This document shows positions 3,184-32,942 of a stretch of DNA of 64,000 nucleotides, one piece after another. Source of the DNA: a virus; the IMG/VR virus record IMGVR_UViG_3300009163_000026, positions 22,856-86,855 of that record; one strand, given 5' to 3'. How positions within the stretch are numbered: position 1 is the first letter of the stretch; the number at the start of each line of letters is the position of its first letter. The notes beneath the pieces are model-generated. The model searched no databases. It was not told where the DNA came from and saw only the letters and a program-made list of their open reading frames with translations. The translations under genes and the position numbers were made by a program.

Positions 3184-3522
3184 TTATAATATCTCGTTAT
3201 CTTTATAATATACATGAATTGCGGGGAAATGTTCAAGTATAAAATTATTTAGTCTCTCTGTACCAGGACGGAAATCGCGACTTTCTCCTTCATCACCCTC
3301 TTCGTCGAGAGTATCTGACCTGTGCCACAAATCAAAGTTAAAATTAGGATGGTCTTCCGCTACCATTATCTCCCTTTCAAATTTGAACCTCCTAGGATTA
3401 GGGGTAGGTCCCATATAGGTAACGTCTACATAAATATTTCCTAATTCCGGTAAGTCACCATCCTCACCATACATTTCGTGCGAAACAACATCAGCCTCAA
3501 TTTCAAATATTTTATATCTCAT
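3184..3522 (-). CDS. MRY-family protein
   Basis: MRYKIF start; VAEDHPNFNFD motif. Confidence 0.8.
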   Translation of the reverse strand: MRYKIFEIEADVVSHEMYGEDGDLPELGNIYVDVTYMGPTPNPRRFKFEREIMVAEDHPNFNFDLWHRSDTLDEEGDEGESRDFRPGTERLNNFILEHFPAIHVYYKDNEIL

Positions 3523-3970
3523 TGTCGTATGTATTTAAATTTACAAAGTCAGGAAGACATTTGTGTAGTATAGTACGTGTCATATCACGTGCAGCTTCTT
3601 TATCATCAGTAATAAAATAATATAGTTCGGCATCCTTCCTACGGGCGGCGTTTAGAACATCAAAATTAAAGCTGGGGTGTGATTCAGGTAGTATGTAATA
3701 GTACCGTGTTGCGTTACCGTATTGTGCATCTGTATTGCTACCACCATCAACCATCCTATATAGGTATTGAGCAACCCTAATAAATTCATATTTTGATAGA
3801 TCATCATCCTCATCGGTTCCTGCTGGACTCCAGTGGCTATTCAAAGCATTTTCTGGTACTCGGTCATACTTGAGTATACTACCATCGACTATCTTAACGT
3901 CTTCTATATGTAGTGTCTCAACTTCATCGAGATCAACAGCGCCTTGTATTTGAAATTTCTTGTATCTCAT
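3512..3970 (-). CDS. MRY-family protein
   Basis: MRYKKF start; ILPESHPSFNFD motif. Confidence 0.8.
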   Translation of the reverse strand: MRYKKFQIQGAVDLDEVETLHIEDVKIVDGSILKYDRVPENALNSHWSPAGTDEDDDLSKYEFIRVAQYLYRMVDGGSNTDAQYGNATRYYYILPESHPSFNFDVLNAARRKDAELYYFITDDKEAARDMTRTILHKCLPDFVNLNTYDNEI

Positions 3971-3971
3971 T

Positions 3972-4355
3972 TTAAAAGTAGTTACGTAACAAGTTATTAA
4001 ATTGCTTCCAAGCGGGGTGGTCTTTAGATATTATAGGCTTTACAGGTGTGTTATATGTACCACCTTCTCCAAGTACAACTCTATCTACTACATATATATT
4101 AAAGAATGGATGTGTCTCTGGTACAAAGAAAGCATTCCGAGAAAACGTCCGTTGATATTCTAACAACTCGTAAATACCATCACGCCATAAGCGGTAGCGA
4201 TTGTCTCTATATATCGGAGTATACGGAGGTGCACCAGGCTCCATTTTAAATTCGTCATCGGTTAGATAGAAAAAGCCATCAGGTATATCCGGATAGTTCA
4301 TACGCACAGATCGCTGTTGATCATTATAGCCGAAAAAGTATAGCCTATATCTCAT
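3972..4355 (-). CDS. MRY-family protein
   Basis: MRYRLY start; FVPETHPFFNIY motif; TATAAATA at 4375-4382. Confidence 0.8.
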   Translation of the reverse strand: MRYRLYFFGYNDQQRSVRMNYPDIPDGFFYLTDDEFKMEPGAPPYTPIYRDNRYRLWRDGIYELLEYQRTFSRNAFFVPETHPFFNIYVVDRVVLGEGGTYNTPVKPIISKDHPAWKQFNNLLRNYF

Positions 4356-4388
4356 TTTTATAACCAGTTAAGTATATTTATAGTAAAA

Positions 4389-4462
4389 GCGTCCGAAGGA
4401 CGCCCGGCACACACATCTTTGTCTCGTTGGTCTCGTTTGTCTCACTGGTCTCGTGTGGTCTT
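4389..4462. repeat. GC hairpin plus about 5 tandem copies of a 9-10-nt (T/G)GTCTC repeat
   Basis: GCGTCC-GAA-GGACGC then tgtctcgtt ggtctcgtt tgtctcact ggtctcgtg tggtctt. Confidence 0.6.
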
Positions 4463-4466
4463 TTTA

Positions 4467-5033
4467 CTATCGCCCGAATTCAAAAGGCGTCCCGTTAGGT
4501 CCAGCGGTAGCCATTACTCTCCCAAAATCATCAGTGTCTTCATTCGCTACAAGCGAGTTGTATTGTTCGTGGGTGATAATTAAATCACGTAGTTGCCTCT
4601 TAGTATCGAGATTGTGAAACTCAGTTGAGGATATAAAATAATCATCAACACAATTATACATTAAGTCTATATTAAACAAAGGATCTGTTTCATCTACTAC
4701 CTTTATAAAGAACTGTGTCATGGTGAAATGAAGATCTTGTTTAACGGATCGATCACCATATTCTTTCGATGTAGGTTGATCCTTACGTGTAACATAGTTA
4801 TAGAACTGAGTTTTACCTAACTGAACATAGTATAGGTGTCGGAGATTATAAGAGTAATTAGGAGAGATTATAATGTCGTCTCTACCATAAATGAACCTAC
4901 CAGGCGGCTTCTTAAGTATACCGGCAAGAGCGCCTATAAAATCTATTTCGGAGCCGTCGTGGATCTCGTCACCGTTAGTATCATAGGCAGCATCGTAAAC
5001 CCTATAGGAAAAATCAATTGCTTTATATCTCAT
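4467..5033 (-). CDS. MRY-family protein (long member); start re-called at MRYKAID
   Basis: ATGAGATAT at 5033; VVDETDPLFNID motif. Confidence 0.75.
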   Translation of the reverse strand: MRYKAIDFSYRVYDAAYDTNGDEIHDGSEIDFIGALAGILKKPPGRFIYGRDDIIISPNYSYNLRHLYYVQLGKTQFYNYVTRKDQPTSKEYGDRSVKQDLHFTMTQFFIKVVDETDPLFNIDLMYNCVDDYFISSTEFHNLDTKRQLRDLIITHEQYNSLVANEDTDDFGRVMATAGPNGTPFEFGR

Positions 5034-5041
5034 ATTATTTA

Positions 5042-5338
5042 TTACCAATTTCTACACGACCAGTAACCGGCCGATGTCTTATCTTTCTTCTGAGAACACT
5101 TGTGTCTAGCTCTGAATGACTTGCGGCGCTTTGGATTAGACTTCTTAATACGTAGATTAGGGTCTCCGTAATGCACTCGCTTATAACCGGTCTTTGTCTT
5201 CACACACCGCATATATTTCTTATCGGATCTACTAGAGGACTGCTGACCGGTTACCTTAGTGCATTGGGTGGCCTCTATGATAATAGAGGTATCAGCTAAT
5301 GCTTCCAGTAACTCATAATACTCGATAAACGATATCAT
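5042..5338 (-). CDS. Conserved basic phage protein (DUF6321-like), probable virion internal protein
   Basis: HYGDPNLRIKKSNPKRRKSFRARHKC..AGYWSCRNW; TATAAATA 5 nt upstream; CTS-like N-terminus. Confidence 0.7.
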   Translation of the reverse strand: MISFIEYYELLEALADTSIIIEATQCTKVTGQQSSSRSDKKYMRCVKTKTGYKRVHYGDPNLRIKKSNPKRRKSFRARHKCSQKKDKTSAGYWSCRNW

Positions 5339-5346
5339 ATTAGTAT

Positions 5347-5685
5347 TTATAGCTTTAGGGATTGCAGATATTTAAATAGTAGACTTGACAGTATGGGTGC
5401 TAGATCTAGAGAGAGGGCCGTGTTTATTTGAGTTTGATAAGCAGGAATATCAAAGATTTCTGTTTTAATAGCAGAATAATTAAAGAATTTATTATCCTCT
5501 GGTACCATATATATATCACCGTACATAGAACCGAGGAACCAAACACCATCTTTAGCCTCCTTAAATCCTTTAAGTACAAGGTTAGCCGGGTAGTTCACTC
5601 CTGCAAAGTTGCTTCCGTGTCTGATATATAATGTTTGATCATAATCCATCATTCCTTTATGTTTAAAATATGATTTGTATCTCAT
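5347..5685 (-). CDS. MRY-family protein
   Basis: MRYKSY; MVPEDNKFFNY; close paralog of 5691-6029. Confidence 0.8.
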   Translation of the reverse strand: MRYKSYFKHKGMMDYDQTLYIRHGSNFAGVNYPANLVLKGFKEAKDGVWFLGSMYGDIYMVPEDNKFFNYSAIKTEIFDIPAYQTQINTALSLDLAPILSSLLFKYLQSLKL

Positions 5686-5690: not shown

Positions 5691-6029
5691 TTAGAGCTTT
5701 AAGGAGAAGAAATATTTAAGTATTAAATTTGACACTCTACCAGATACATCAAACCCAAAGACCGCGTTTAGTTCAGTTCGATAAACAGAATAATCAAAGA
5801 TTTCTTTTTTAAGAGGGTAAAAATTAAAGAATTCATTATCCTCTGGTACCAGATATGTATCACCGTACTGAGAACCGATGAACCAAACACCATCTTTAGC
5901 CTCCTTAGCTCTTTTAAGTCCAATGTTATTTGGGTTCTCCACGTCTACAAAGCTGTTTCCGTGTCTGATATATAATATCGAACCACAACTTATCGTTCTC
6001 CCCTCCACAAAATACGGTTTATATCTCAT
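5691..6029 (-). CDS. MRY-family protein
   Basis: MRYKPY; LVPEDNEFFNF; shares LYIRHG and KEAKDGVWF with neighbour. Confidence 0.8.
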   Translation of the reverse strand: MRYKPYFVEGRTISCGSILYIRHGNSFVDVENPNNIGLKRAKEAKDGVWFIGSQYGDTYLVPEDNEFFNFYPLKKEIFDYSVYRTELNAVFGFDVSGRVSNLILKYFFSLKL

Positions 6030-6973
6030 CTTTTGGTTAAGTTTGAATTATCTGGCAAAAACTTGCCTTTGAGTTCTAAGCGTTCTTGGTTATCGATCCA
6101 ATATTGCTGAAGGTCCTCAGGAATGTCGGCTCGGGTACTATCGAGGATTTTTAAGTATATATCATATACAGCGTGTAGGTCTCGGGCTGGTAAGCTATTC
6201 TTAAGCGCTCCAATTAGTTTAAAATAATCACCAGCTGTATCCGTGGTTAAATCTAAACCATATAGTCTATTAAGGAGACTTATAGCCTGGGGAGGACTCG
6301 ATGCCGCAATCTCTTGAGTTGCCTTATTTTTGATTCCATAGTTGTGGGAGAATGTATATCCTTTGTGAGAGAAAAGAGCTACAATAAGCTGGGTTCTGTG
6401 TAACCCTTTAATACTTCCTTTATAAACTGCCGAGTGGTAGGCAAACGATAACCAATCTATATCACCTACATTGATATCAATCTGAACATTCTGCCCTACT
6501 TCCCTACCCTGTTCATCATATTGAGGAAACTGACAGAAGAGAGAACCAGAGGAAGAACCTTTAATGTCTACTAAAATCTGCTTATCAGAGGCTTGGAGTT
6601 TTTCTGCAATTGCTACAATAACTGCTCGCTTAAGAAGCTGGGTATCTACAGCGGTCTTTGAGCGTTTCTTAAAACCAACAAAGAGGTCTTGAACTCTGTT
6701 ATCATCTAATCCCCAATCAGAAATATCTTTGAAAGAGTCCTCTGATAGAGCAAGATCTATGTCTCCTGAGTAGTCTTTTTTACCGACAGATCCAAGTGTG
6801 CGCACACCTTTAAAGTGTGGGTGTGCTTTAGGAAACACACCTCCAAACTGCTTAAAGAATTCTCGAAGAGTTGGATTTATATGCTCCTTTTTAATCGGAC
6901 CAGTCTCATCAAAAACATTACCCCCCTCTGTGAGAATTTGTCTTGTAGTAAAGAACCTAGCAAACGATATCAT
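6026..6973 (-). CDS. Pol-beta superfamily nucleotidyltransferase-like protein; start re-called at MISFARF
   Basis: LGSVGKKDYSGDIDLA (GS-x-DxD) plus VQIDIN third Asp; TATAAATA at 6983-6990. Confidence 0.75.
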   Translation of the reverse strand: MISFARFFTTRQILTEGGNVFDETGPIKKEHINPTLREFFKQFGGVFPKAHPHFKGVRTLGSVGKKDYSGDIDLALSEDSFKDISDWGLDDNRVQDLFVGFKKRSKTAVDTQLLKRAVIVAIAEKLQASDKQILVDIKGSSSGSLFCQFPQYDEQGREVGQNVQIDINVGDIDWLSFAYHSAVYKGSIKGLHRTQLIVALFSHKGYTFSHNYGIKNKATQEIAASSPPQAISLLNRLYGLDLTTDTAGDYFKLIGALKNSLPARDLHAVYDIYLKILDSTRADIPEDLQQYWIDNQERLELKGKFLPDNSNLTKR

Positions 6974-7036
6974 ATACAAGTGTATTTATAGGAGACCCAT
7001 TATAAAGAGCTCGAGAATTTTGGCAAAAAAAATTTT

Positions 7037-7384
7037 TTAGGGCTTAAAATTGTCAATTGCTAGTTGCTGTATCTCACGGGTCCGGTGTATGACATGATTA
7101 GGATACATTTCATCGTTTGCTCTGATAAGACGATCTATATTAAAAAATGGGTTACTCTCTGGTACCATATAGACAGCACCATTTGAACGGCGTTCGCTAG
7201 GGACCCATATACCATTTTTAATCTCCGTACAATTAATAAGATTAATACCCCATCTATAAGCCGGCTGATCGCTTTGCGGGTAGTGGAAGTTGTTACCCTG
7301 TTTTATAAACACCTCCCCACACCCCGCAAGCTCCGTCTGGTGAGTTATCTGTTCAACTTGAATTAAATATGCTTTGTATCTCAT
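7037..7384 (-). CDS. MRY-family protein
   Basis: MRYKAY; MVPESNPFFNID. Confidence 0.8.
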   Translation of the reverse strand: MRYKAYLIQVEQITHQTELAGCGEVFIKQGNNFHYPQSDQPAYRWGINLINCTEIKNGIWVPSERRSNGAVYMVPESNPFFNIDRLIRANDEMYPNHVIHRTREIQQLAIDNFKP

Positions 7385-7393: not shown

Positions 7394-7750
7394 TTAAGAC
7401 TTTAAGGATTTGAGATATTTAATTACAAGAACCTTTACTCTAACCTGTAGATAAATAGGATCTGCATCCAATCCATTTATAATAACACCTGTAGTAAAAA
7501 ATTGGTGGCTCTCTGGTAAAATAAAGATATCACCTACTTCATGTTTGAGGAAATAGACACCATCGTTAAGCTCTTCACAATTCTTAAGGTTACTCATGAC
7601 AACGTTGCTTGTTTTATAATCAAAATGATCTCTATTGCTAATACCAGCGAGCTCCTTCATATCTACAAAGTCATTACCTTGTCTAGCTAACACCAACCCA
7701 CCAGGATATAATGACCTGTACCCCTGTATAATGCATGCTTTGTATCTCAT
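7394..7750 (-). CDS. MRY-family protein
   Basis: MRYKAC; ILPESHQFF. Confidence 0.8.
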   Translation of the reverse strand: MRYKACIIQGYRSLYPGGLVLARQGNDFVDMKELAGISNRDHFDYKTSNVVMSNLKNCEELNDGVYFLKHEVGDIFILPESHQFFTTGVIINGLDADPIYLQVRVKVLVIKYLKSLKS

Positions 7751-7759: not shown

Positions 7760-8167
7760 TTAAGACTTTATGGATTCGAGATACTTTATTGCTAAATTTC
7801 TTATTATATCTTTAGTGAGCAGCGTTTCGTCGATGTCCCGTAATTCATCCAACCCAACTAGAATAAGATCTACATTAAAGAAAGGATGAGTCTCTGGTAT
7901 ACAAAAGATAGCTGTTTCCCGTGCTCGGCCCGCTAAGCCCCTAGTTCCAGCAATCTCCTCTGCTGACGGAGGGTCAGCATGCATCCAGATACCATCTTCA
8001 ACTTCGTGTAGATCTTCAAGCATCATACTACCTGAGGACCCCCATTCAGTCCGAGAATTATTTACGAAGTTATTACCATTCCTAAACAGCATTGGCTCGT
8101 ACCCTAATCTAAATCTAACGGTTCCGGTGCGCAAAAATGTCTCTATAAGGTATCCTTTGTATCTCAT
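7760..8167 (-). CDS. MRY-family protein; start re-called at MRYKGY
   Basis: ATGAGATAC at 8167; CIPETHPFFNVD; TATAAATA at 8181-8188. Confidence 0.8.
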   Translation of the reverse strand: MRYKGYLIETFLRTGTVRFRLGYEPMLFRNGNNFVNNSRTEWGSSGSMMLEDLHEVEDGIWMHADPPSAEEIAGTRGLAGRARETAIFCIPETHPFFNVDLILVGLDELRDIDETLLTKDIIRNLAIKYLESIKS

Positions 8168-8301
8168 CTTTGTGTGTGTATATTTATACAAAGCCCTATA
8201 TAGAGACCACGAGAATTTTGACAAAAATTTTTGGACATGGGCTCAAACCCCGCCCTCCGGCGTCGCTATTATACACAATTCGGAGCGCTGGAGGCTCCAT
8301 A

Positions 8302-8348: not shown

Positions 8349-8744
8349 TCACTTCGTACCATCAATCACTAGGCAGCCCATATCATCATCGTCCTCCCCC
8401 ACAAAGGTTTCCGGTTCTTCTTTACCTTCAAACACTACTACCTTCTTTACTGGCTTAGGCTTAGCTTCTTTCTTCACGGCTGTCTTCTTTACCTTAGCCT
8501 TAGCTGCAGCTGGTAACGCCTCAACGATCTCACCGCGAGTAATCTTACCTACCTCCTTGAGGTGCTCAGCTACCATCTTGAGCTCTACTACCTCTTGGCG
8601 TAGATCATCAGTGTACTTCATTGCGACGTTCCACAGAGCTTGCATCAACTGCTTATCAGTCGTCATCAGGTCTTGACGCACATAGGTAAACTCAGAGCGG
8701 ACTTGTTCAGGTGCAACGATAGTAACGAATTTGCTTTTAGTCAT
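8349..8744 (-). CDS. Hypothetical early protein with Lys/Ala-rich and acidic tail
   Basis: ORF track; GGAAC-N5-TATAAT at 8786-8801. Confidence 0.7.
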   Translation of the reverse strand: MTKSKFVTIVAPEQVRSEFTYVRQDLMTTDKQLMQALWNVAMKYTDDLRQEVVELKMVAEHLKEVGKITRGEIVEALPAAAKAKVKKTAVKKEAKPKPVKKVVVFEGKEEPETFVGEDDDDMGCLVIDGTK

Positions 8745-11319: not shown

Positions 11320-12513
11320 TTATTTAACGCCTAGTGTCATAAACCTCGATAAAGCAGACATCTTTCCTACCGGATAAGACTTATTACCCAATCCGTCGGA
11401 TCTTAATACCATGCACTTTTCAATTGTTTCTTTACCTTCGTCGAAATCAAAATCTACATTAATTTGCCAGATCCTATCAGGGTTGTCAGGGTGATCCCTA
11501 TCCACTTTATAATAGTATGTACCACTGATACCATTATCATGGAAGGTTTTGAGTATGCAGTATGTAGGACTATAAGGATTTTCTGATTTAAGTGTAAAGT
11601 TATTAACAATCTCTTTACTACGAAAAACTCCTTCCTCATCGTCTTCTACCTCACCCTCTACAAGTGAATAGTTATCATTTATGTTACGCGGAGGTGTAGC
11701 TTTAAGGTCTGATATCTTCTCTCGGTCTTTTTCGCTAAGATATTTTTCAAACTCACTACCCATAATATGGTCTACTATTATTTTATTAAGGACAGCTACT
11801 CTACATCCAATACTCACATCCTCTTCATCCATATATTGTTCACCAGCGTAGTGAAGCTGATACTTAATACTGGGGTCTTTTTTGCTTATAAAAATTATTA
11901 ATTGTCCTGATTTGGAATAATGTTCATAATAATTTAATCCTGGTGCAGCTGTACACCAGTCAGTATCCTTACCGAGTGAGCAGGCAGCACCTTTTGTTTG
12001 AGGAAAATACACCTGCCAAATATCGTTTTCATATACAAGAAGTTGTCCTTCACCTTTTGTGGATCTTTCTATTTTTTGAGAGTTATACTGCTGGTAAGGA
12101 CCTTCTGCCTCGATTAAATCTACAACAAATTCTTCAAAAGTCTTATATCTTTCAATAGCACTATACTTTAAAAACTTATCCGCAAGATTTTGTTGTTTTA
12201 TTTGATAGAATAATTCTAGATATTTCCTTAACTCCATGTGATAGTTCGATAAGAGTGTCGCACCACCTGCTCTTATTATGTATTGCTTATTCTGCTTCTC
12301 GTTTTTAATAGAACTTATAAGCCAGTTTAGAGCATTAGCCTTGTCTTTTTCTCTAATATCATTAGGGATAATGCTCATTATTATATTCTTTACCGCTAGA
12401 TATTCTATATCTGTGAATATTCCTTTAAACTTTTCACTATCCATTAACTTTGTTACTTCATCAAAAGAAAGTTCTAAAAGTAAAACCTTATATGTTTCAT
12501 AAAATGTCTTCAT
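11320..12513 (-). CDS. Large-phage protein with WCT-motif domain; start re-called at MKTFYETY
   Basis: AACSLGKDTDWCTAAPGLNYYEHY..KYQLH..YMDEED; CTS-like N-terminus; TACAAATA upstream. Confidence 0.7.
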   Translation of the reverse strand: MKTFYETYKVLLLELSFDEVTKLMDSEKFKGIFTDIEYLAVKNIIMSIIPNDIREKDKANALNWLISSIKNEKQNKQYIIRAGGATLLSNYHMELRKYLELFYQIKQQNLADKFLKYSAIERYKTFEEFVVDLIEAEGPYQQYNSQKIERSTKGEGQLLVYENDIWQVYFPQTKGAACSLGKDTDWCTAAPGLNYYEHYSKSGQLIIFISKKDPSIKYQLHYAGEQYMDEEDVSIGCRVAVLNKIIVDHIMGSEFEKYLSEKDREKISDLKATPPRNINDNYSLVEGEVEDDEEGVFRSKEIVNNFTLKSENPYSPTYCILKTFHDNGISGTYYYKVDRDHPDNPDRIWQINVDFDFDEGKETIEKCMVLRSDGLGNKSYPVGKMSALSRFMTLGVK

Positions 12514-12535
12514 ATTATTTGTATTCATCTTTCTT

Positions 12536-12886
12536 TTATAATGTTTTGCGTATGCTATCGTATAAATCATATAGTATCTCTGATACACGGTAACCTCCTT
12601 CAATATGACCTTCAGATACTCTACATCTTTTTATGAACATACCCGCATTGAAGTACTGGTGTGTCTCTGGTATAAGTAGTTTATCAACTATTGGGCGGTC
12701 ATTAAGTCCTGGTACTATCATAGAATAAAATCTTATGCCATTCTCTTCTATCTTTCTCAGTTCAAACAATGAAAGGTCGCCGCCGTGTGTTAGCTCTATA
12801 TCATCTCCATCGCTTATGCCTATTTCATATACTAGTGGTGTAGCTACAAACGTCCCTGGTACAAATTTTATACTGCTGTATCTCAT
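12536..12886 (-). CDS. MRY-family protein
   Basis: MRYSSI; LIPETHQYFNA. Confidence 0.8.
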   Translation of the reverse strand: MRYSSIKFVPGTFVATPLVYEIGISDGDDIELTHGGDLSLFELRKIEENGIRFYSMIVPGLNDRPIVDKLLIPETHQYFNAGMFIKRCRVSEGHIEGGYRVSEILYDLYDSIRKTL

Positions 12887-12891
12887 ATACT

Positions 12892-13272
12892 TTAAAATAA
12901 TTCTGGTTGAGTGGTTACGCTCTTTAGATAGTTACCGAACATTCTAAAAAGAACTTTTAATATATCGCCATGAACATCGTTAATATCATTTTTGTCGTTA
13001 ATTTGTGAAATTCCATACATAATAGAACCACAACCAAAGAGTGGGTTATCTTCCCGGGTAAGAACTACAAAATCATCTGAGCTACGATTACCCACATACA
13101 CACTCAAGCTATCATCTGTTGTTGGTATTAGTTGGATACTGTTAACCTGCCCTGTAATAAATGTGAATGGTAGGTCTTTTACAGCTGCTTCAAGTGAGGT
13201 ATATACCCTAGATAATGGGTCGATATAACCACCTCCTGAATATTTAAAGTAACGTGTTATTGTGTATCTCAT
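12892..13272 (-). CDS. MRY-family protein
   Basis: MRYTIT; LTREDNPLFG (degenerate motif). Confidence 0.75.
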   Translation of the reverse strand: MRYTITRYFKYSGGGYIDPLSRVYTSLEAAVKDLPFTFITGQVNSIQLIPTTDDSLSVYVGNRSSDDFVVLTREDNPLFGCGSIMYGISQINDKNDINDVHGDILKVLFRMFGNYLKSVTTQPELF

Positions 13273-13276
13273 ATCG

Positions 13277-13645
13277 TTATTTTTTTTGTTTTGCGCGCCA
13301 CTCTTTCATCACTCCTAGGTAAAGTTTATGTAGTATATCAATTATTATATCATTAAAACTTATTGGAAGGTCATTTTCTACCTGAAGTATCACATAGCTG
13401 TTAAACAACGCGTGTGTCTCTGGGAGAAACATATGACACTCGGGCGCAACTGCAAAGGACAGTACAATGCCTTCCTTACTCACAAAGTTTACAGGAAATC
13501 GAATAATCTCTGGAATATAATCGCTATTTGTCCTCTTCTTACTATAATAATATAGATTCATACTATCATCTTTTACTATAGATAATCCAGGTGATATATA
13601 TAGATGATCCTTATTATTAGGGTATCCTATGTATGAGTATCTCAT
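13277..13645 (-). CDS. MRY-family protein
   Basis: MRYSYI; FLPETHALFNS. Confidence 0.8.
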   Translation of the reverse strand: MRYSYIGYPNNKDHLYISPGLSIVKDDSMNLYYYSKKRTNSDYIPEIIRFPVNFVSKEGIVLSFAVAPECHMFLPETHALFNSYVILQVENDLPISFNDIIIDILHKLYLGVMKEWRAKQKK

Positions 13646-13652
13646 ATCGCTT

Positions 13653-13979
13653 TTAATTATTTAACTCTCTCACTATGCCTTCTGATGTATTCTTCAAGAA
13701 CGAATCTATCTTGTACAAATTAAATCTAAGGATACACACTGCACTGAACAGTGGGTGTGACTCTGGTATAAGAAGAAATATATCATATTTCAGGTTCGTG
13801 CTTGTACTGCCCAGTAGGTATACTCCATCCTTTTGCTTAATTAAATCCAACATCCAACTCTTTGGGTTTCCGGTAATAGCGGTGAGCTTATTATACTCTG
13901 GATTAAAGTTATAGGTATACGGGCTCGTATTATTATAGACAGAACCTTCCTTAGCAAATGTAATAACTGTGTATCTCAT
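13653..13979 (-). CDS. MRY-family protein
   Basis: MRYTVI; LIPESHPLFSA. Confidence 0.8.
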   Translation of the reverse strand: MRYTVITFAKEGSVYNNTSPYTYNFNPEYNKLTAITGNPKSWMLDLIKQKDGVYLLGSTSTNLKYDIFLLIPESHPLFSAVCILRFNLYKIDSFLKNTSEGIVRELNN

Positions 13980-13985
13980 ATGCTT

Positions 13986-14339
13986 TTAATTTGTAGTAAA
14001 CAACTCAGCGAGTTTTATTGCTTCTGGTAATAGGAACGCTCGTACTTTCCCTCGTAAGCTATATAGATCAGTGCTATATAAGGCTGTGTAATAATTAAAC
14101 AGTGGGTGTGTCTCTGGTATGACTAGATACTCATCCCTATGACTGTCTCTTCCATTAGCGACTGCAAAGCAAAAAAAGACACCAGAGACCTCGTCCGTTT
14201 TTATTAGCATCGTTGGTTGATCGGATCTGTTAAGCTCTTTAAAAGCACCATTGATTTTCTGAAACGGGCGGAACACTACCTGCGGTGAATGATTGCGCGC
14301 TGCTTCTCTTTTTGAATAGTGTATAGCTCTATATCTCAT
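13986..14339 (-). CDS. MRY-family protein
   Basis: MRYRAI; VIPETHPLFNY. Confidence 0.8.
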   Translation of the reverse strand: MRYRAIHYSKREAARNHSPQVVFRPFQKINGAFKELNRSDQPTMLIKTDEVSGVFFCFAVANGRDSHRDEYLVIPETHPLFNYYTALYSTDLYSLRGKVRAFLLPEAIKLAELFTTN

Positions 14340-14343
14340 TTTT

Positions 14344-14679
14344 TTAAAAGGTTTTTACTAAGTTCTTAAGGACTAAATAGGTTATTTCAGGGTGGGACCA
14401 CTGTCGGGGGAAGTTTGGACCTAGAGCTGCTATATACAGATTGAATATAGGGTGTCTCTCATCTACTATAAAGCAATACTTCCCAAAAGTTCCTGGTGTC
14501 TTATATACTGTTAGACCTAGTTGACCGGTGTTAATCATTTTCATATGCTTACCATATATTCCTTCGATGACATCAATAGCTTTCCCTCTTGTATTATAAC
14601 AAAATCTATATGCGTCTGTATCGTGTGCTTCGCCTACTACTTTTGTAGTATTCTTGAGAGTGTATAAATGGTATCTCAT
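14344..14679 (-). CDS. MRY-family protein
   Basis: MRYHLY; IVDERHPIFNL. Confidence 0.8.
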   Translation of the reverse strand: MRYHLYTLKNTTKVVGEAHDTDAYRFCYNTRGKAIDVIEGIYGKHMKMINTGQLGLTVYKTPGTFGKYCFIVDERHPIFNLYIAALGPNFPRQWSHPEITYLVLKNLVKTF

Positions 14680-15011
14680 AATGTTCCTTCTTCACCATAC
14701 TTCTCTGCTTCATCTAGAGTTGTGGGTATACCAACCTTCCTAAACTCCCTGGCTCCATAGAGATGAATCCTTCTAAAAAGCCTTTTTCGTGTACTAAACT
14801 CGCAATCTATTATAACACCAATGTTAAATAATGGATGTGTCTCAGGTACCTTAACATCTACTAAACGTAATGTAGGATCATCTTTTAGGTGTACGTAGTA
14901 TCCAAGCCCATCTGACGTAAAGATCCATTCATTACCCATCTTGTCGTAGAGTTCTATTTCAATATCATTTAGACTCTCTTCTATATATACCTCAAGATAG
15001 CTGTATCTCAT
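14676..15011 (-). CDS. MRY-family protein (first of a 7-gene array)
   Basis: MRYSYL; KVPETHPLFNI; TATAAATA at 15020-15027. Confidence 0.8.
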   Translation of the reverse strand: MRYSYLEVYIEESLNDIEIELYDKMGNEWIFTSDGLGYYVHLKDDPTLRLVDVKVPETHPLFNIGVIIDCEFSTRKRLFRRIHLYGAREFRKVGIPTTLDEAEKYGEEGTL

Positions 15012-15077
15012 ACTTTTTATATTTATACTTTAATAGACACATAGGTTACTATTTATAATAGCTCTTGGGAGATAGAC

Positions 15078-15113
15078 AAAGACTCCTGCAGAGCTAAACT
15101 CATACAGGAGTCC
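15078..15113 (-). terminator. Probable intrinsic terminator
   Basis: GACTCCTG..CAGGAGTC stem followed by short U-run on minus strand. Confidence 0.5.
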
Positions 15114-15147
15114 TTACAAATAGGGAGATGCAAGAGCATCCTATGAA

Positions 15148-15675
15148 TTACATGCGACGTTGGGTGTCCTTAAGAGGGCGACCCATAGCGTCTAGCCTAG
15201 GAGTTTTCCTCGGTTTGTTAAGCTCTTCGTTTCCTAAACCTCTAACGCCTTCAGGTTTAGGTCTAGGACTGTTCTTCGGTTCGTTGAGATCTTTGTTTCC
15301 TAAACCTCTAACACCAGCCGGGCGTTTGAATTTGCCAGCCGATGGACGCCTAACGTTCTCAGCATCCTCTTCGTCATCGTACTCCTCATCTTCCATGTCT
15401 TGCTCTTCAGGAGATTCATCTTCCATCGCTTCTACCTCACCACTAAGAATCATCGAAAGGTGCTCGCAAGCTTCACCTTCATCAATCGATCCATCTTCAA
15501 CACCCTGTAATAACTGGGCTAAGAGGCCCATCAATCCTGGTTCATCAGACTCTTCTGAGTCATTACCACTTGATTGACCTGAAGAGGACGACTTCGAACT
15601 ACCACCGAGAGGCCCGCCTTGAGATATTGAACCTTCAAAAGCTTCCCACATTAAAACCTGATCTGTTTTGCGCAT
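15148..15675 (-). CDS. Low-complexity acidic/basic late protein with duplicated GVRGLGN repeat
   Basis: TATAAATA 5 nt upstream; Ser/Glu/Asp-rich. Confidence 0.7.
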   Translation of the reverse strand: MRKTDQVLMWEAFEGSISQGGPLGGSSKSSSSGQSSGNDSEESDEPGLMGLLAQLLQGVEDGSIDEGEACEHLSMILSGEVEAMEDESPEEQDMEDEEYDDEEDAENVRRPSAGKFKRPAGVRGLGNKDLNEPKNSPRPKPEGVRGLGNEELNKPRKTPRLDAMGRPLKDTQRRM

Positions 15676-15710
15676 AATATTATTTATACTAACAATAAAG
15701 ATTTAATCTA

Positions 15711-15881
15711 TTACCCTACCTTGATAGAGCTTTTTAGTTCTCCGCAAAGGTCTGAGATTCGATGTCTTAAATACTCTAGAGTTTCATCAAGCTCAGATTT
15801 TGTTGGATAGTCGCATTCAAACAGCTCATTGACTGCATTATGAATTATAAAATCAACCGCTAATATTTGTTCTTTCTGCAT
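15711..15881 (-). CDS. 56-aa hypothetical protein (MQKEQILAVDF...)
   Basis: Hand-translated; GGAAC promoter 15888-15903. Confidence 0.65.
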   Translation of the reverse strand: MQKEQILAVDFIIHNAVNELFECDYPTKSELDETLEYLRHRISDLCGELKSSIKVG

Positions 15882-15915
15882 ATTCTTATTATAAGAGAGT
15901 TCCTATGCAGACAGA

Positions 15916-16227
15916 TCATACGGGCTTAGATTTTGCTTTAATCGTCACACGCAGTTTTTTAACTGCATCATGAAATAATTCTTCAGTACCGATTTTAATA
16001 TAATCAGCTGTTTTAAGCACTAGTAATCCATAATTATAATACGGGTGGGTTTCAGGTATACCCATCCAATGTTCTGTAAGAAATATACCGGTTTCATCAT
16101 CTGTTGAAATAATATCCCAGCTGCCATTCCTTGCAGCTAACACCATATCATTCCCATCTCTATAGCAAAACGCAGACCTAAATTGTATCGGCCCATGCCG
16201 GCCAAAATATACAGCTGAATATCTCAT
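15916..16227 (-). CDS. MRY-family protein; start re-called at MRYSAV
   Basis: ATGAGATAT at 16227; GIPETHPYYNY. Confidence 0.78.
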   Translation of the reverse strand: MRYSAVYFGRHGPIQFRSAFCYRDGNDMVLAARNGSWDIISTDDETGIFLTEHWMGIPETHPYYNYGLLVLKTADYIKIGTEELFHDAVKKLRVTIKAKSKPV

Positions 16228-16238
16228 CTGTAAGATAT

Positions 16239-16658: not shown

Positions 16659-16669
16659 ATTTTGTTGGA

Positions 16670-16801: not shown

Positions 16802-16813
16802 AATATTATTATA

Positions 16814-17182: not shown

Positions 17183-17199
17183 GTAAGATTATTTATTAA

Positions 17200-19467: not shown

Positions 19468-19514
19468 ACTTAATATTAGTATCAAATGTAGCAGAGTCAA
19501 CTGTTTAAAACAAA

Positions 19515-19549
19515 AAAAACTCCTGTAGATTAAATCTACAGGAGTTTTT
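19515..19549. terminator. Intrinsic terminator, bidirectional
   Basis: AAAAACTCCTGTAGAT-TAA-ATCTACAGGAGTTTTT. Confidence 0.85.
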
Positions 19550-19562
19550 ACTTTAATTTTCT

Positions 19563-19985
19563 TTACATGTTATCAAAATCAATTTCTGCTACACCTTTAT
19601 CCTTTACTTCAATATCTGCCATGGTTTTGCCAGCGGATGCTTTAAAAGCATCTGTCCATTGTTTACTGTTGTGATCGATCTTCACATCATCGAGGAAGTA
19701 AAAAGCTAACTTAGGATCCTCCTGATCATACTCACCTTGTTCATTAGCAAAAACAATAGCAGGTCCTGCTGCGTTATGAAGAACATCATTTTCTGTATCA
19801 CTTATCTTCTTTGTATAAAACATAACAATATTTTTTGAACCATCTTTAAAATCATTTAGTCTAAGATTTTGACCTTTTTGGTTATAAAGGTGACTGGCGG
19901 AATTATTAAGATTCTCTGCATCTGCAGTACCTTCTAGGATAAGACGAGCAATGTCGCCTAGGGATTGGATGTCTGATTTTCTCAT
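19563..19985 (-). CDS. Late protein with one LHxxxGPA motif
   Basis: LHNAAGPAIVF..YFLDD; TATAAATA at 19993-20000; CTS-like LILE. Confidence 0.7.
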   Translation of the reverse strand: MRKSDIQSLGDIARLILEGTADAENLNNSASHLYNQKGQNLRLNDFKDGSKNIVMFYTKKISDTENDVLHNAAGPAIVFANEQGEYDQEDPKLAFYFLDDVKIDHNSKQWTDAFKASAGKTMADIEVKDKGVAEIDFDNM

Positions 19986-20011
19986 ATGTTTATATTTATA
20001 TAGTCTGTTTA

Positions 20012-21109
20012 TTATTTATCAAGATTAATAGCGTTAAATTCTACATCTGATCCATTATCTAATGCCCATTTAACAAACGGTAAACTACTACTACGATCTG
20101 TTCCGCCTGTCGGTATTAAGAATACAGTTTTTACCTCTGGCAGGTAGGACTTTTTAAAGTCAGCCTCTATACAATCTGTAAGGAATATAAATCCGTGAAA
20201 TCTATCCATAGGCATATCAGTATCATCAAAATCAACGCGTTCACCAGTAATTGTATCTCTAAAGCCTTTCTCAAATATGCATTTCATTGTTGTTCCCCAG
20301 TCGTTACCACCAGAGAAGCCTGTTTCTATAGTCGGTCTAATAATATCAATCATTGCATAGGGATCTTTATTGCCTTCAGATGGAGTAAAATCGATATAAT
20401 GCCAGACATTACCACTGTAAAAAATAATACGAATGACACCTAGACTACTTCGATGTTCTTCAGCGATGCTAAAGACAGCACCCATAAACGTTTCTAGCAT
20501 TGGAGGATTACCAGCAGTAATAGAACCAGAAGTATCTATACATATAGCAAGATTACCTAAGGTAGGCTTGCCTGGAACCTTTCCTGGTACACCTGAACTT
20601 CCCTGCTCTATACGATTTAAACTAGCTCTATGACTCTTCGAGTGATCTCGACCACCTTTTGGTTTGAATGCTCCAAGCATGCCTTGAAGAATATAGCGCC
20701 AATCTGCTTCAGGTATTTCTATATCGTCTAAAATAGTTTTAGCCTTAGCGTTTTCTCTCTGAGCTCTAACCTGTTCAGCGTGTTTATGAGCTTTACGTAT
20801 AATTTCTACTTCACTTTCCTGATCTTCATTATTTCCATCATTGGGTACATCAGAACCAGGTAGACCTTCAGCTCCATCACCTTCATGCATATCATTAACG
20901 GGTATAATACCTCCTGGAGTACCTGGAGGACCTTTACCTCCTCCTGGAGTACCTGGAGGACCTTTACCTCCTCCTGGAGTACCTGGAGGACCTTTACCTC
21001 CTCCTGGAGGACCGTCGCCCGGAGTACCGCTGCCACCGCCACCGCCCCCGCTTGGTACCCCACCACCTGGACCTACAACACCTTCTATTATAAACTTAAA
21101 CTTCTTCAT
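20012..21109 (-). CDS. VWA-like protein (DUF2201 C-terminal half) with Gly/Pro-rich N-terminal repeats
   Basis: DWRYIL, ICIDTSGSI MIDAS, GGND, IFLTD. Confidence 0.8.
   Translation of the reverse strand: MKKFKFIIEGVVGPGGGVPSGGGGGGSGTPGDGPPGGGKGPPGTPGGGKGPPGTPGGGKGPPGTPGGIIPVNDMHEGDGAEGLPGSDVPNDGNNEDQESEVEIIRKAHKHAEQVRAQRENAKAKTILDDIEIPEADWRYILQGMLGAFKPKGGRDHSKSHRASLNRIEQGSSGVPGKVPGKPTLGNLAICIDTSGSITAGNPPMLETFMGAVFSIAEEHRSSLGVIRIIFYSGNVWHYIDFTPSEGNKDPYAMIDIIRPTIETGFSGGNDWGTTMKCIFEKGFRDTITGERVDFDDTDMPMDRFHGFIFLTDCIEADFKKSYLPEVKTVFLIPTGGTDRSSSLPFVKWALDNGSDVEFNAINLDK
20910..21009. repeat. Perfect 30-bp tandem repeat x3.3 (encodes GGGKGPPGTP)
   Basis: cctcctggagtacctggaggacctttacct units at 20910, 20940, 20970. 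Confidence 0.95.
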
Positions 21110-27475: not shown

Positions 27476-28684
27476 TTAAGGAAGACTTCTAATCATCGCT
27501 CCCTCGAAGAATCCGGTTACCGTAACATTATTACTTGCTATGACCCAAATTTGCATTTTATCTCCCGCTGTACATGAAAGAATAGTTTGACAAGTGCTTC
27601 TAACTGTAGCCGCGCCCATTTGATTTCCTTCTATCATACTAACTCCATTTTGCTTAATCCTTGGATTTATGTTGGCGACTCCGGCGACGCTATTGTAAAT
27701 CGTTGATAGAAATAAATAGTATCCCGTTATAGGTATTGTATACTCACCGGCTGAAACTCCACTATTTGTATCATACATCACCGTAAAGTTTGTAAGTCTT
27801 TCATCAATATTCCCATTAGGCACAATGGTTGTTGTCGTCGTGGGTACAATTGTAACCTTAAACAATGGTCCTTGACCAACGACGTTAGGGGCGAGTTTAA
27901 CTTGAGTAATAGCTTGGTTGTTAATCCTATCAGTTGTAACAGCGCTTAAGGCTATTCTATCGGTTGTTACCGCAGTTAAAGCAAGCTTAGCTGTTGTGAT
28001 CGCCTTATTGTTAATTACCTCGGTCGTCACTGCACTTAATGAGATTTTGTCTGTTGTTATTGTAAGCCCAGCAAGTGCATCATTAAGTATGTTTGGAGCT
28101 AGTTTTGCTAGCGTGACAGATTGGTTGTTAATCCTGTCAGTTGTAACAGCGCTTAAGGCTATCTTATCAGTTGTGATAGCGGTTAGAGCTATTCTATCAG
28201 TTGTAATAGCGCTTAAAGCTATCTTATCAGTTGTAATAGCTTTATTGTTAATTACTGCGGTTGTTACTGCACTTAAAGCAATCTTCTCTGTTGTAACAGC
28301 CTGACTGTAAATCTTTGGTGTTATGACAGAGTCTACAGCAAGCTTATCTGAATTAACAGCTTGATTTACAATTTTTACTGTTGTAACAGAATCAACAGCG
28401 AGCTTATCCGCTGTAACAGCGAGGTTGTTAATTCTATTAGTTGTGACAGCACTTAAAGCAATTTTCTCTGTTGTTATAGCACTTAAAGCAATTTTCTCTG
28501 TTGTAATCTGTGATTCTGCAACTGCAGGAATTTGAGATATAATAGATGCAGCAAAATTCGCTATTGTTATTTTTTTATTAGTACCACTTGTAGACATAGT
28601 TGTATCTGCAATGTCAACTAGTTGTAATACGTCTGTAGCTCTTAGGTTAGTTGCTGCTGTTAGTGACGTGATTTTGCGTGCCAT
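27476..28684 (-). CDS. Tail-fibre-like protein with 10-aa AITTDKIALS repeats and C1q-like C-terminal domain; start re-called at MARKITSL
   Basis: About 20 decapeptide repeats; DTN..GEYTIPITGYY..AGDKMQIW C1q/TNF-like pattern; ACTAAATA upstream. Confidence 0.75.
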   Translation of the reverse strand: MARKITSLTAATNLRATDVLQLVDIADTTMSTSGTNKKITIANFAASIISQIPAVAESQITTEKIALSAITTEKIALSAVTTNRINNLAVTADKLAVDSVTTVKIVNQAVNSDKLAVDSVITPKIYSQAVTTEKIALSAVTTAVINNKAITTDKIALSAITTDRIALTAITTDKIALSAVTTDRINNQSVTLAKLAPNILNDALAGLTITTDKISLSAVTTEVINNKAITTAKLALTAVTTDRIALSAVTTDRINNQAITQVKLAPNVVGQGPLFKVTIVPTTTTTIVPNGNIDERLTNFTVMYDTNSGVSAGEYTIPITGYYLFLSTIYNSVAGVANINPRIKQNGVSMIEGNQMGAATVRSTCQTILSCTAGDKMQIWVIASNNVTVTGFFEGAMIRSLP

Positions 28685-30169: not shown

Positions 30170-30246
30170 TGGTGAGAGTGGAGGAATTCGAATCCCCGAC
30201 CTAAGGAGTAGAAATCCTTTGCTCTATCCAGCTGAGCTACACTCCC
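30170..30246 (-). tRNA. tRNA-Arg(UCU)
   Basis: Cloverleaf; anticodon arm AAGGA-TTTCTAC-TCCTT; CCA encoded. Confidence 0.9.
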
Positions 30247-31279: not shown

Positions 31280-31297
31280 ATTTAAAAATTTAAAGAG

Positions 31298-31397
31298 CTT
31301 TAACAGGCATACGACCTCGACAGTCCGAAGACTAGAACTTAATCTAAATCGAGAGCATCGCCACTCTTCATGAGTCCGGTTGCATTTTATATCAAAG
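31298..31397 (-). ncRNA. Unassigned structured RNA candidate C (about 100 nt)
   Basis: Closing CUUUGAUA/UGUUAAAG; ACUC-AUGAA-GAGU; CUCGA/UCGAG; AGUC-UUCG-GACU. Confidence 0.55.
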
Positions 31398-31525
31398 AGC
31401 GAAAATTAATCACTAACCTTTAGTTAGTGAGGATCTTTCAAGTCTGGCTAATCCCTACTCAATCGATCCGTTTATATTGTAAATACTATTTATACTTTAT
31501 CTACTTCTAAGTATATCGAAGTTCC

Positions 31526-31693
31526 TTAACCTGGTTTCGATCCAAAGACAATTCGTGAGGAATATGAATGCTGATTGTATTCAAAATGCATCATATCACC
31601 AGCAAAGGTCTCTTCAATGTCGATAAATTCAGTGTCCTCAACGTTCACCCAACCGTAATGCTTATCCGTAAATACCCAAGTATTGTCTTTCAT
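31526..31693 (-). CDS. Small hypothetical protein; start re-called at MKDNTW
   Basis: GGAAC promoter 31700-31715. Confidence 0.65.
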   Translation of the reverse strand: MKDNTWVFTDKHYGWVNVEDTEFIDIEETFAGDMMHFEYNQHSYSSRIVFGSKPG

Positions 31694-31700
31694 ATGATTA

Positions 31701-32186
31701 TTATAAGTAAGTTCCATTGAAAATTAGCGGTGTTAATAATTCTGCTCGACTGATCGCTTCAGCCTCCCAAGGTAAGCTAGTATACTCTTCATCGCAAGAA
31801 GGTTTAACAGTCACAATATCCTTACCTTTCCATTTATAGCATTGAGCTTTGGAGCTATTTCCGAGTCTCTTAGCGTAAAATTGCTCGATATGCACGAGCT
31901 CATGTAACAACGTATCTTTAAAAGAGTCGAAATCTTGCCGCACATCAACCTCAACAATATAATTCTTACCGTATGACGTTAAAGGTATGTGCTCCGTCGT
32001 AGCGCTGCCGTAAATATTGCGAATTGGTCGCAAGCGTATGAACAGATTTCTAGGTAAGATCATATGCTTTCTAATATCCTTAAACCGCTCTTTGATGACA
32101 TCAGCTAGAAGCCGTGCATATGCGCGGTGTTCTCTGTAGTTACCGGAAAGAATTGATGAAGATATGGTAATGGTGGGTAAACTCAT
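31701..32186 (-). CDS. Zinc metallopeptidase-like protein (HExxH)
   Basis: TLLHELVHIEQ..WKGK..Y..LPWEAEA. Confidence 0.8.
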   Translation of the reverse strand: MSLPTITISSSILSGNYREHRAYARLLADVIKERFKDIRKHMILPRNLFIRLRPIRNIYGSATTEHIPLTSYGKNYIVEVDVRQDFDSFKDTLLHELVHIEQFYAKRLGNSSKAQCYKWKGKDIVTVKPSCDEEYTSLPWEAEAISRAELLTPLIFNGTYL

Positions 32187-32359
32187 TATGCGGGTATAAT
32201 TTTAATGATTTCGCTTATATCTGGGCATATTTCGTAAAAGAAATCACGCGCTTCTGTCTTATCTGCAGCATAAACAATAATTGAATTCTCCAGCTGCGTC
32301 CGTGGTACAATAAATTTTACAAAATACATTCCTAAATTTTTAACCTTGGCTTCTCTCAT
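32186..32359 (-). CDS. 57-aa hypothetical protein (MREAKVKNLGMYFVKF...)
   Basis: Hand-translated; GGAAC promoter 32366-32381. Confidence 0.6.
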   Translation of the reverse strand: MREAKVKNLGMYFVKFIVPRTQLENSIIVYAADKTEARDFFYEICPDISEIIKIIPA

Positions 32360-32382
32360 ACCATTATTATATTAGAGTTCCC

Positions 32383-32580
32383 TTAACTCTTAACTCTTAA
32401 ACAACGCAGGTTGATCAGTTGTCTTGGTGAGATATAGAATGTATTCTCTGGATCGGAATATGATCTGAGCATATAACTTCTACCTTCTCTATTCATAGGA
32501 TCTTACCAGAAGATCTCTCGTTCATATTGGTTATAAGCTATTTTGGTTCTTTCACTACGACTGCAAACTTTGTATCTCAT
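32383..32580 (-). pseudogene. Disrupted, truncated MRY-family gene
   Basis: MRYKVCS..IFW-TAA(32503-32505)-DPMNRE..TFYISP then diverges; ATGA overlap with upstream MRY gene. Confidence 0.6.
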
Positions 32581-32942
32581 AGCTTAACTCCTACCTTTGT
32601 TTGTATAAAATTGCGCATATACTTGTTAGCAAAATCACGAATGACTTCCCGTTTATCTTTTGGTACATTATAATACAACATATCATAACACATTGATGCA
32701 TTAAACAGAAAATGGGTCTCAGGCATCATAAAATATATTACAGGCTTTTTAAATCTTAGCTCCCTATCTGCGAAATAGATACCGTCAACATTGTTTTTAA
32801 AAACTACACCCATGCTATAGCCATCCTGCGATCGAAACTCACCTGTATCTTCATCTCTATACCACAACTGACCATCACGCTGCAGCAATGTCCCTTCATT
32901 AGTTCGCTTACCTCCAGAACATTCACATACAATATATCTCAT
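32577..32942 (-). CDS. MRY-family protein
   Basis: MRYIVC; MMPETHFLFNA; TATAAATA at 32951-32958. Confidence 0.8.
   Translation of the reverse strand: MRYIVCECSGGKRTNEGTLLQRDGQLWYRDEDTGEFRSQDGYSMGVVFKNNVDGIYFADRELRFKKPVIYFMMPETHFLFNASMCYDMLYYNVPKDKREVIRDFANKYMRNFIQTKVGVKL

Follow-up and report, generated by a model that had tools for sequence, protein, structure and literature searches.

A multicopy, phage-restricted family of small proteins with one predicted fold and cassette-like gene turnover in a freshwater phage

Introduction

Within 64,000 nucleotides of viral DNA (the window; bases 22856-86855 of the 86,855-nt linear IMG/VR virus record IMGVR_UViG_3300009163_000026), 19 intact open reading frames (ORFs) and the remnant of one more, all on the minus strand, constitute a genuine paralogous family that is restricted to phages. 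We refer to these as MRY genes, after the residues with which their products usually begin. Together they take up 7,041 nt, or 8.1% of the 86.9-kb record; they are predicted to encode small proteins of a single fold, and are gained and lost as whole units between related phages. An earlier reading of the same DNA (the original prediction) had described a hypervariable family of 19 intact ORFs and one pseudogene, arrayed behind late promoters and joining a constant docking core to a variable surface. Each of these ORFs was located where that reading had placed it.

Large environmental phages are full of genes that lack annotation; here one family fills about 8% of an 87-kb fragment and recurs in every related contig examined, with 3-19 copies in each. 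Relaxed or diversifying constraint, combined with gain and loss of cassettes, are marks expected at the interface between phage and host. If the proteins were inhibitors of host defences, the family would be a new and plentiful reservoir of counter-defence proteins for hosts of the Bacteroidota type, and a recombination site built into the gene start would be a simple route for modular exchange. Even with a mundane function, the family merits a Pfam or PHROGs profile that would make it visible.

Homology, conservation and orphan status

The relationship among the MRY proteins was established with profile hidden Markov models (HMMs). In leave-one-out searches each of the 19 proteins was recovered by a profile of the other 18, with E-values from 5e-19 to 1.8e-3; every member outranked all non-family ORFs of the record (best non-family E-value 0.11 or worse), and the profile of all 19 revealed no further copies in the 86.9 kb. 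Pairwise, blastp reached E < 1e-3 in just 19 of 171 member pairs, and identity to the reference member ranges from 15 to 31% among paralogs. Over 145 distinct members, the Glu of the PExHPxFN motif is present in 100%, M, R and N in 94%, Y in 91%, F in 90%, P in 79% and H in 73%; in about 27% of members an N, D, S or Y stands in for the motif His, and the position ahead of it is occupied by T, S or D. The original prediction recognised only two anchors, the N-terminal MRY and this motif. Both are conserved, but they have company, namely a D-G-[VIL] turn (Gly in 81%) and a G-x-x-[FY] element that are also kept across the 145 members.

The HMM built from the 19 proteins, which had been proposed as a check, encountered no characterised domain, in agreement with the initial failure to recognise a family. 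When 77 members were scanned singly, no Pfam-A 2025, PHROGs v4 or NCBIfam 20 family was matched by more than one of them (best single-member E-values 0.0012, 0.0042 and 0.014, respectively), and no sequence match was found in the Protein Data Bank (PDB). A word-indexed homolog search contributed no further names and no Pfam domains. Interrogation of 1.84 billion representative proteins with the profile retrieved 83 matches at E < 1e-3, nearly all of them 90-150 residues long with the MRY start and the motif present; none is fused to a known domain, and the single long true match is a tandem double domain. Two other long proteins, P0019 (1470 residues) and P0031 (727 residues), matched the motif part only, by way of many ETDP[IL]F repeats, and were set aside as chance matches boosted by repetition. 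Their repeat unit, E-T-D-P-[IL]-F-x-x-S, is present 8-11 times and resembles, probably by coincidence, the DETDPLFN of the MRY gene at 4467-5033; one of the two proteins also has fn3 and Lcl_C domains.

Nothing was retrieved from 50,697 isolated phage records when one member was searched by tblastn, nor by megablast of positions 12000-20000 against isolated phages. A scan of 185,579 species genomes (596 Gb), confined to the exact pattern PETHP[LF]FN, gave 27 single hits, none of them a member by profile; about 35 are expected by chance for a pattern of 35 bits, so that these cellular hits stand at chance level. Scanning IMG/VR for DNA encoding the same pattern identified seven contigs, five of which hold 6, 19, 12, 12 and 11 copies of the family, and 11 further loci carry 3-8 copies each. 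The family has been seen only in related contigs of large freshwater T4-like phages, and is always multicopy (3-19 per fragment).

A layout of strand, strand and helix with His and Asn led us to consider the HNH (beta-beta-alpha-metal) class of nucleases. The His is present in only 73% of members, its spacing from the Asn is 4 residues where 10-30 are required, and no HNH profile match recurs among members, one of which matched the related Tox-SHH at E 0.057.

Predicted fold

AlphaFold2 modelling of the member at 5691-6029 from 77 sequences reached a mean predicted local distance difference test (pLDDT) of 93.9 and a predicted template modelling score (pTM) of 0.84; a first model, of the member at 13986-14339 from only 19 sequences, had reached pLDDT 69.8. 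The confident model is compact, of about 110 residues, with seven strands within residues 2-62 and helices at 70-78, 81-91 and 95-110. Each gene is accordingly modelled as encoding a small soluble single-domain protein, comprising a seven-stranded beta part and a three-helix C-terminal cap; no membrane segments were found in family proteins. MRY falls in strand 1 (residues 2-9), and the motif (residues 60-69) links strand 7 to helix 1, where its nearly invariant form is hydrophobic-hydrophobic-P-E-[TS]-H-P-[LF]-F-N. The conserved residues would thereby clasp strand 1, strand 7 and helix 1, and may simply hold the fold together.

Around this constant core there appears to be freedom in the loops, in the surface charge and in an insertion that ranges from 0 to 60 residues; the isoelectric point (pI) of family members spans 4.5-9.4. 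Structure prediction, another proposed check, thus returned one confident shared fold with a common core. The picture of a constant core beneath a variable surface is borne out in fold, loops and charge alike, but the docking of that core to a shared partner gained no support.

The best Z-score against the PDB was 4.2 despite the confident model, which suggests that the fold is so far absent from structure databases; Foldseek comparison of the model of pLDDT 69.8 with the PDB and BFVD had returned nothing at E < 0.01. Only PH-like folds came back repeatedly among the top matches when three independent structure searches were compared. This superfold (EVH1, Dcp1, Ran-binding, Rpn13 Pru, PTB and PH domains) has in common with the model a tract of about 65 residues of antiparallel strands followed by a C-terminal helix, and is defined by a seven-stranded beta sandwich closed by one C-terminal helix and by clear superposition. 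PH-like domains are classic peptide- and protein-binding modules. A beta-trefoil was also entertained: the ESM Atlas leads, at sub-threshold scores of 0.75-0.76, were all beta-trefoils, as was a Pfam hit of one member (E 0.0013). It was rejected because the model has seven strands and three helices, and because scores below 0.8 are common for shuffled proteins.

Divergence and cassette turnover

Comparison with related phages revealed both rapid change and long retention. The segment 3182-5342 is 91% identical in DNA to that of the close relative L026. Across it the four MRY genes at 3184-3522, 3512-3970, 3972-4355 and 4467-5033 show ratios of non-synonymous to synonymous rates (dN/dS) of 0.33, 0.55, 0.28 and 0.60, values inflated at low dS, against 0.02 and 0.07 for reductase subunits of similar dS and 0.02-0.13 for most neighbours; their non-synonymous rates are 5-10 times those of the neighbours. 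Close orthologs differ along the whole protein, with substitutions per site ranging from 0.31 in insertions to 0.12 in helix 3, the lowest, and within this regional range (0.12-0.31) no sharp split between a constant core and a hypervariable patch was found within orthogroups.

Whole genes also come and go. In the close relative L025 the gene at 3972-4355 is missing, and a joint inside the shared AAAATGAGATA connects its late promoter and leader with the body of the gene that follows. A contig from run X2, a DNA run, skips the gene at 7037-7384 exactly (joint 7035->7393) and has 365 extra letters at 5341/5348. Whole units are thus deleted and inserted by recombination inside the shared start AAAATGAGATA, and the genes act as cassettes.

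Several paralogs have clear orthologs in distant relatives that exceed in similarity all pairs of paralogs within the window, bar one recent duplicate (5347-5685 and 5691-6029, 52% identity). The best-conserved orthogroup, that of 3512-3970, is 52-54% identical in four IMG/VR contigs (and 93-94% in the close relatives L025-L027). The gene at 16814-17182 has an ortholog of 55% identity in the contig G004, and orthologs in the contig G005 are found for 32577-32942 (43%), 3184-3522 (38%) and 12536-12886 (31%); that of 14676-15011 occurs in both at 32-34%. Local gene order is kept with these distant orthologs, and many of the duplications must therefore be old and individually retained. The term hypervariable, as first applied to the family, fits its substitution rates and the turnover of its genes, but not the in-order orthologs.

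Organization of the MRY genes

Within arrays, genes are separated by 1-9 nt or overlap, by ATGA at 14676-14679 and by 11 nt at 3512-3522, as originally described; by tandem count the arrays hold 2, 3, 3 and 7 genes. One array of three comprises the genes at 3184-3522 (112 residues, acidic with a pI of 4.5, motif variant AEDHPNFN), 3512-3970 (152 residues, beginning MRYKKFQI) and 3972-4355 (127 residues). The gene at 4467-5033 encodes 188 residues with a long insertion and has the motif variant DETDPLFN. The recent duplicates at 5347-5685 and 5691-6029 encode 112 residues each, and the second array of three comprises 7037-7384 (115 residues), 7394-7750 (118) and 7760-8167 (135, counted from the MRY start).

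The seven-gene array begins with 14676-15011 (111 residues) and continues through 14344-14679 (111), 13986-14339 (117), 13653-13979 (108), 13277-13645 (122) and 12892-13272 (126; motif REDNPLFG), which is the weakest member with a leave-one-out E-value of 1.8e-3, to its last gene at 12536-12886 (116). Two members are solitary, one at 15916-16227 (103 residues), downstream of a gene at 16239-16658, and one at 16814-17182 (122 residues), which has an MRV start (ATGCGTGTT) and the motif FENHPFFN. The remaining intact gene, at 32577-32942 (121 residues), lies directly downstream of tRNA-Leu. The decayed copy at 32383-32580 opens with ATGAGATAC (MRYKVC) and is interrupted by an in-frame stop after codon 25; a remnant ..DPENTFY.. 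survives, and the 3' part of the copy has been replaced by a GGAAC-N5-TATAAT promoter at 32381, with loss of the C-terminus. Read through with X, it matches the profile at its N-terminal part only, at E 0.016.

Promoters and gene starts

The claim that arrays begin at late-promoter boxes was upheld at all four sites named, with TATAAATA present on the minus strand 8-19 nt upstream of the first ATG: at 4375-4382 (19 nt from the ATG at 4355), 8181-8188 (13 nt from 8167), 15020-15027 (8 nt from 15011, with a second copy at 15050-15057) and 32951-32958 (8 nt from 32942). Two more boxes on this strand are followed by other genes that lead into MRY genes: that at 5344-5351 lies ahead of a 98-residue gene (5042-5338), which leads into 4467-5033, and that at 6983-6990 ahead of a 315-residue gene (6026-6973), followed by the MRY genes at 5691-6029 and 5347-5685. 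The box at 4375 is kept in L025 and L026, as is a terminator-like hairpin on the same strand at 4385-4403, GCGTCC-TTC-GGACGC followed by TTTT, which parts the unit 4467-5338 from the next late unit. The hairpin was read from the sequence and went unflagged by a consensus scan, which for sigma-70 promoters and terminators performed at chance level only.

The window contains 21 copies of TATAAATA versus 11.1 +/- 3.2 in shuffles; 19 of the 21 are on the coding strand, and for 13 of these 19 an ORF start lies no more than 20 nt away. The same box occurs 88 nt upstream of the gp23-like capsid gene of the record, and in relatives an NTAAATA box precedes each of 11 array starts checked by 6-14 nt. 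By analogy with T4, the array boxes would be late promoters of the T4 type, active late in infection.

GGAAC-N5-TA[TA]AAT occurs in 21 copies on the minus strand between 8801 and 44846, mostly 5-9 nt upstream of an ATG. GGAAC-N5-TATAAT would represent a second promoter class, yielding near-leaderless mRNAs. It precedes other small genes and the units that hold the two solitary members, at 16823 for 15916-16227 and at 17514 for 16814-17182. Hybrid sites at 10958 and 10042 have GGAAC a few nucleotides upstream of a TATAAATA box. A lake RNA library yielded short contigs identical to 14586-14736, which overlaps the gene at 14344-14679, and to 14777-14939, within that at 14676-15011; they are weak evidence for transcription, since DNA can occur in such libraries, and only the covered parts of the window were interpreted.

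The gene starts are themselves conspicuous. Of the 20 ATGAGATAY sites on the coding strand, 18 are starts of family genes, one is that of the remnant and the last is internal and unrelated. Eighteen of the 19 genes have AGA as codon 2, whereas AGA makes up 30% of their other Arg codons, so the start must be under constraint as DNA or RNA too. This bias may reflect control at the initiation region or through a tRNA, or merely the recombination site. The phage encodes a tRNA-Arg(UCU) at 30170-30246 (minus strand).

Possible functions

The reading we prefer, held tentatively and with less than even confidence, is that of a diversified repertoire of small binders or inhibitors, made late in infection and aimed at variable host factors. 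Each paralog would target a different factor, either a defence system or a determinant of host range, and the proteins may ride in the virion and be ejected in the manner of T4 internal proteins; an anti-defence or host-range role is plausible. A fuller version, unlikely as a whole, would see in the family a scaffold library in which a novel small fold, held by an invariant clasp of MRY and PExHPxFN, is diversified over its whole surface, shuffled as cassettes via a hotspot in the first 11 nt of the gene, made late and carried into the next cell against its defences. Such a library would amount to a modular counter-immunity repertoire, with a logic like that of immunity-gene arrays but on the side of the virus.

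Several observations weigh against a repertoire of inhibitors. The analysis found neither a partner, ligand or target for the proteins nor any resemblance to known anti-defence proteins, and the N-terminus has no capsid-targeting propeptide of the T4 type. The dN/dS ratios are below 1 and make no case for positive selection, and in-order retention at 31-55% identity over deep divergence also fits stable housekeeping roles. Late timing would lean on the analogy with T4 and on the promoter of the capsid gene; TATAAATA precedes non-structural genes too, among them a gene of the deazaguanine operon, and the two solitary members sit in units with the other promoter class. The invariant Glu and the frequent His and Asn, moreover, could form a ligand or catalytic site and not a clasp.

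Docking, the mechanism first proposed, holds that MRY and PExHPxFN plug all paralogs into one partner (the virion, MoxR/VWA, DnaK/DnaJ or another phage protein) and that the surface gives specificities. We consider it decidedly unlikely. An invariant Glu and five near-invariant residues do persist across 145 otherwise free sequences, but in the model they occupy strand 1 and the strand-7/helix junction, the usual place of fold-determining residues. DnaJ is absent from a close relative that retains the same four MRY genes, and is therefore not an obligatory partner. By synteny only, a candidate partner is an LpxH-like metallophosphoesterase that lies immediately upstream of an MRY array in four relatives, yet in this window it adjoins no array and is at least 8 kb from the nearest; its predicted complex with the MRY protein of 3972-4355 scored 0.00, weighing neither way. 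The phosphoesterase gene (40944-41615, minus strand) is of the calcineurin type, with motifs DIHLG, GDLFD, GNHD and GHTH (Pfam PF12850/PF00149). Its counterparts are at L013:10331-10996, L015:15238-15903, L016:17613-18275 and L020:8285-8950, with 57-59% identity across the five phages. The same conserved residues would have another meaning if R2, Y3, Glu, His and Asn formed an enzymatic or ligand-binding site, with a nucleotide signal or a metal as a possible ligand and with paralogs differing in substrate. Such a polar set is typical of catalytic or ligand sites and the proteins are compact, at about 110 residues, but this proposal is quite improbable: the His is replaced in some 27% of members, the position preceding it is not fixed (T, S or D), no enzyme family or fold was matched, and free variation of all other surface positions is rare among enzyme families.

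Three further explanations take up the late-type promoters, the T4 affinity or the turnover of the genes. In T4, gp21 cleaves after L/I-X-E (PMC9026906). The invariant [LIV]-P-E would correspond to such a prohead-protease site if MRY proteins entered the capsid and were split behind the Glu, the two fragments then being released or ejected, a course that we regard as improbable. The placement of the phage in the T4 superfamily by its gp23-like capsid protein, the late-type promoters before the genes and the frequency of the site ([LI]-P-E in 81 of 145 members, or 56%; [LIV]-P-E in 114, or 79%; Glu invariant) are consistent with cleavage. In the model, however, the site lies mid-domain within a confident fold and not at the end of a propeptide, the conserved H-P-[LF]-F-N after the Glu is unnecessary for cutting, Val at P3 and Pro at P2 fall outside the published logo, and an N-terminal targeting propeptide is lacking: 18 of 145 members have [LI]-x-E among their first 15 residues, where shuffled sequences give 13.6 +/- 3.5. 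Structural accessories (decoration proteins, assembly chaperones or fibre adaptors, their diversity matching different attachment sites on the virion) would likewise suit late-type promoters, and large genes of probable structural function occur in the window along with a tail-fibre-like one (27476-28684); but T4-like structural modules are conserved and single-copy, whereas here whole genes are dispensable between near-identical strains, and the arrays lie among nucleotide-metabolism, chaperone and homing-endonuclease genes, outside the structural block, which makes this explanation very improbable. That the genes are functionless or selfish duplicates, spreading by recombination at the shared start and merely tolerated, is hardly credible: units are gained and lost at a conserved start, one copy is decaying and constraint is relaxed relative to neighbours, but 19 of 20 copies are intact, dN/dS stays below 1 (0.28-0.60), orthologs of 31-55% identity keep their order in distant relatives, conservation of the fold core extends over 145 sequences and about 8% of the record is devoted to the family.

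Comparison with known systems

The nearest precedent for a late repertoire of ejected inhibitors is found in T4, whose IPI is a late-made, packaged and ejected anti-restriction protein, and whose internal-protein genes are non-conserved (PMC9026906). Like the MRY proteins, T4 internal proteins are small, belong to the T4 superfamily, stand behind late promoters, are poorly conserved between relatives and are non-essential, and for IPI a part in the arms race, through inhibition of a host restriction enzyme, is proven. They differ in sharing only an N-terminal propeptide of about 10 residues ending in L/I-X-E, with unrelated mature parts, whereas MRY proteins have the whole fold in common, lack such a propeptide and number 19 copies versus three; packaging of the MRY proteins is hypothetical.

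A second likeness is to arrays of immunity genes against polymorphic toxins. As described in PMC3113570 and PMC3482391, such arrays consist of small, divergent paralogs that keep a common core and are considered to counter a range of related attackers, and SUKH proteins have been taken up by DNA viruses. MRY genes resemble such arrays (SUKH, Imm) in their head-to-tail order of divergent small paralogs, with 2, 3, 3 and 7 genes at 15-31% identity, and differ in being phage-borne, in standing behind late-type promoters and in their predicted fold. No Pfam Imm or SUKH match was found among 77 members, and no toxin gene is adjacent; annotated neighbours are DnaJ, the phosphoesterase, ThyX, homing endonucleases and lysozyme.

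Jumbo phages such as phiKZ and 201phi2-1 likewise give over many late genes to paralogous families without known function, among them virion and inner-body proteins, some cut after Glu by the prohead protease. Those proteins are larger, were found by virion proteomics and have no sequence relation to the MRY proteins, which are known from genes alone.

The phage, its neighbouring genes and the genomic setting

Completeness of the record was estimated by CheckV at 41%, from which a genome of roughly 200 kb follows. Its gp23-like major capsid gene (phrog_138, E 2e-84), whose best matches among isolates are cyanomyoviruses at 33% identity only, places this uncultured freshwater phage in the T4 superfamily. 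Labels of freshwater or lake water attach to the source run and to four runs from four further studies, whose contigs are 88-99% identical; 20 runs with small shares were left out of the evidence on habitat. The record also encodes ribonucleotide reductase, DnaK, DnaJ, a MoxR-type AAA protein, a tail-fibre-like protein and four tRNAs. Shine-Dalgarno sequences are missing at gene starts, the sole pointer here to a Bacteroidota-type host; the host is probably a freshwater bacterium of that phylum.

Moraphages, described in 2025 as freshwater jumbo phages with T4-like structural genes, DnaK and DnaJ, and predicted Bacteroidota hosts (PMC12619734), match the present phage in habitat, T4-like capsid gene, the pair DnaK and DnaJ, a genome of about 200 kb and starts that lack Shine-Dalgarno sequences, a comparison made by description. 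That report does not mention the MRY family and remarks only on variable genomic islands.

The DnaJ gene (2061-3170, plus strand) is full length, with a J domain, CXXCXGXG and the C-terminal domain. In L026 it is missing and replaced by 752 nt with a 153-residue ORF of unknown function. DnaJ is a strain-variable insertion, because it is absent from L026 while the flanks of the site are 81-91% identical between that phage and the window.

Three minus-strand genes near the MRY arrays deserve mention. The 98-residue protein of 5042-5338, rich in Lys and Arg and situated within an array region, is 96% identical in L026 with a dN/dS of 0.06, a strong constraint unlike that on the surrounding MRY genes; it matched no family. 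The 315-residue protein of 6026-6973, between MRY arrays and behind a TATAAATA box, bears a GS-x10-DIDL signature reminiscent of Pol-beta-type nucleotidyltransferases, and had no Pfam or PHROG match. A 131-residue protein with a Lys/Ala/Pro-rich tail (8349-8744) is kept near MRY arrays in relatives at 49-58% identity, and its gene shows many small insertions around 8515-8532 in contigs from three lake runs.

Homing-endonuclease-like genes of the NUMOD3/HNH type are found among MRY arrays, all on the minus strand, at 20012-21109 of the window, L015:11566-12189 and L020:2435-3136. Interspersed homing-endonuclease genes are typical of plastic regions in T4-like genomes.

Farther along the window, a single ORF of 3,645 residues (50071-61008, plus strand) lies between ORFs of 982 and 981 residues, the latter of which matched only phrog_34846, a family of unknown function. 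These three ORFs probably encode giant structural or fibre proteins.

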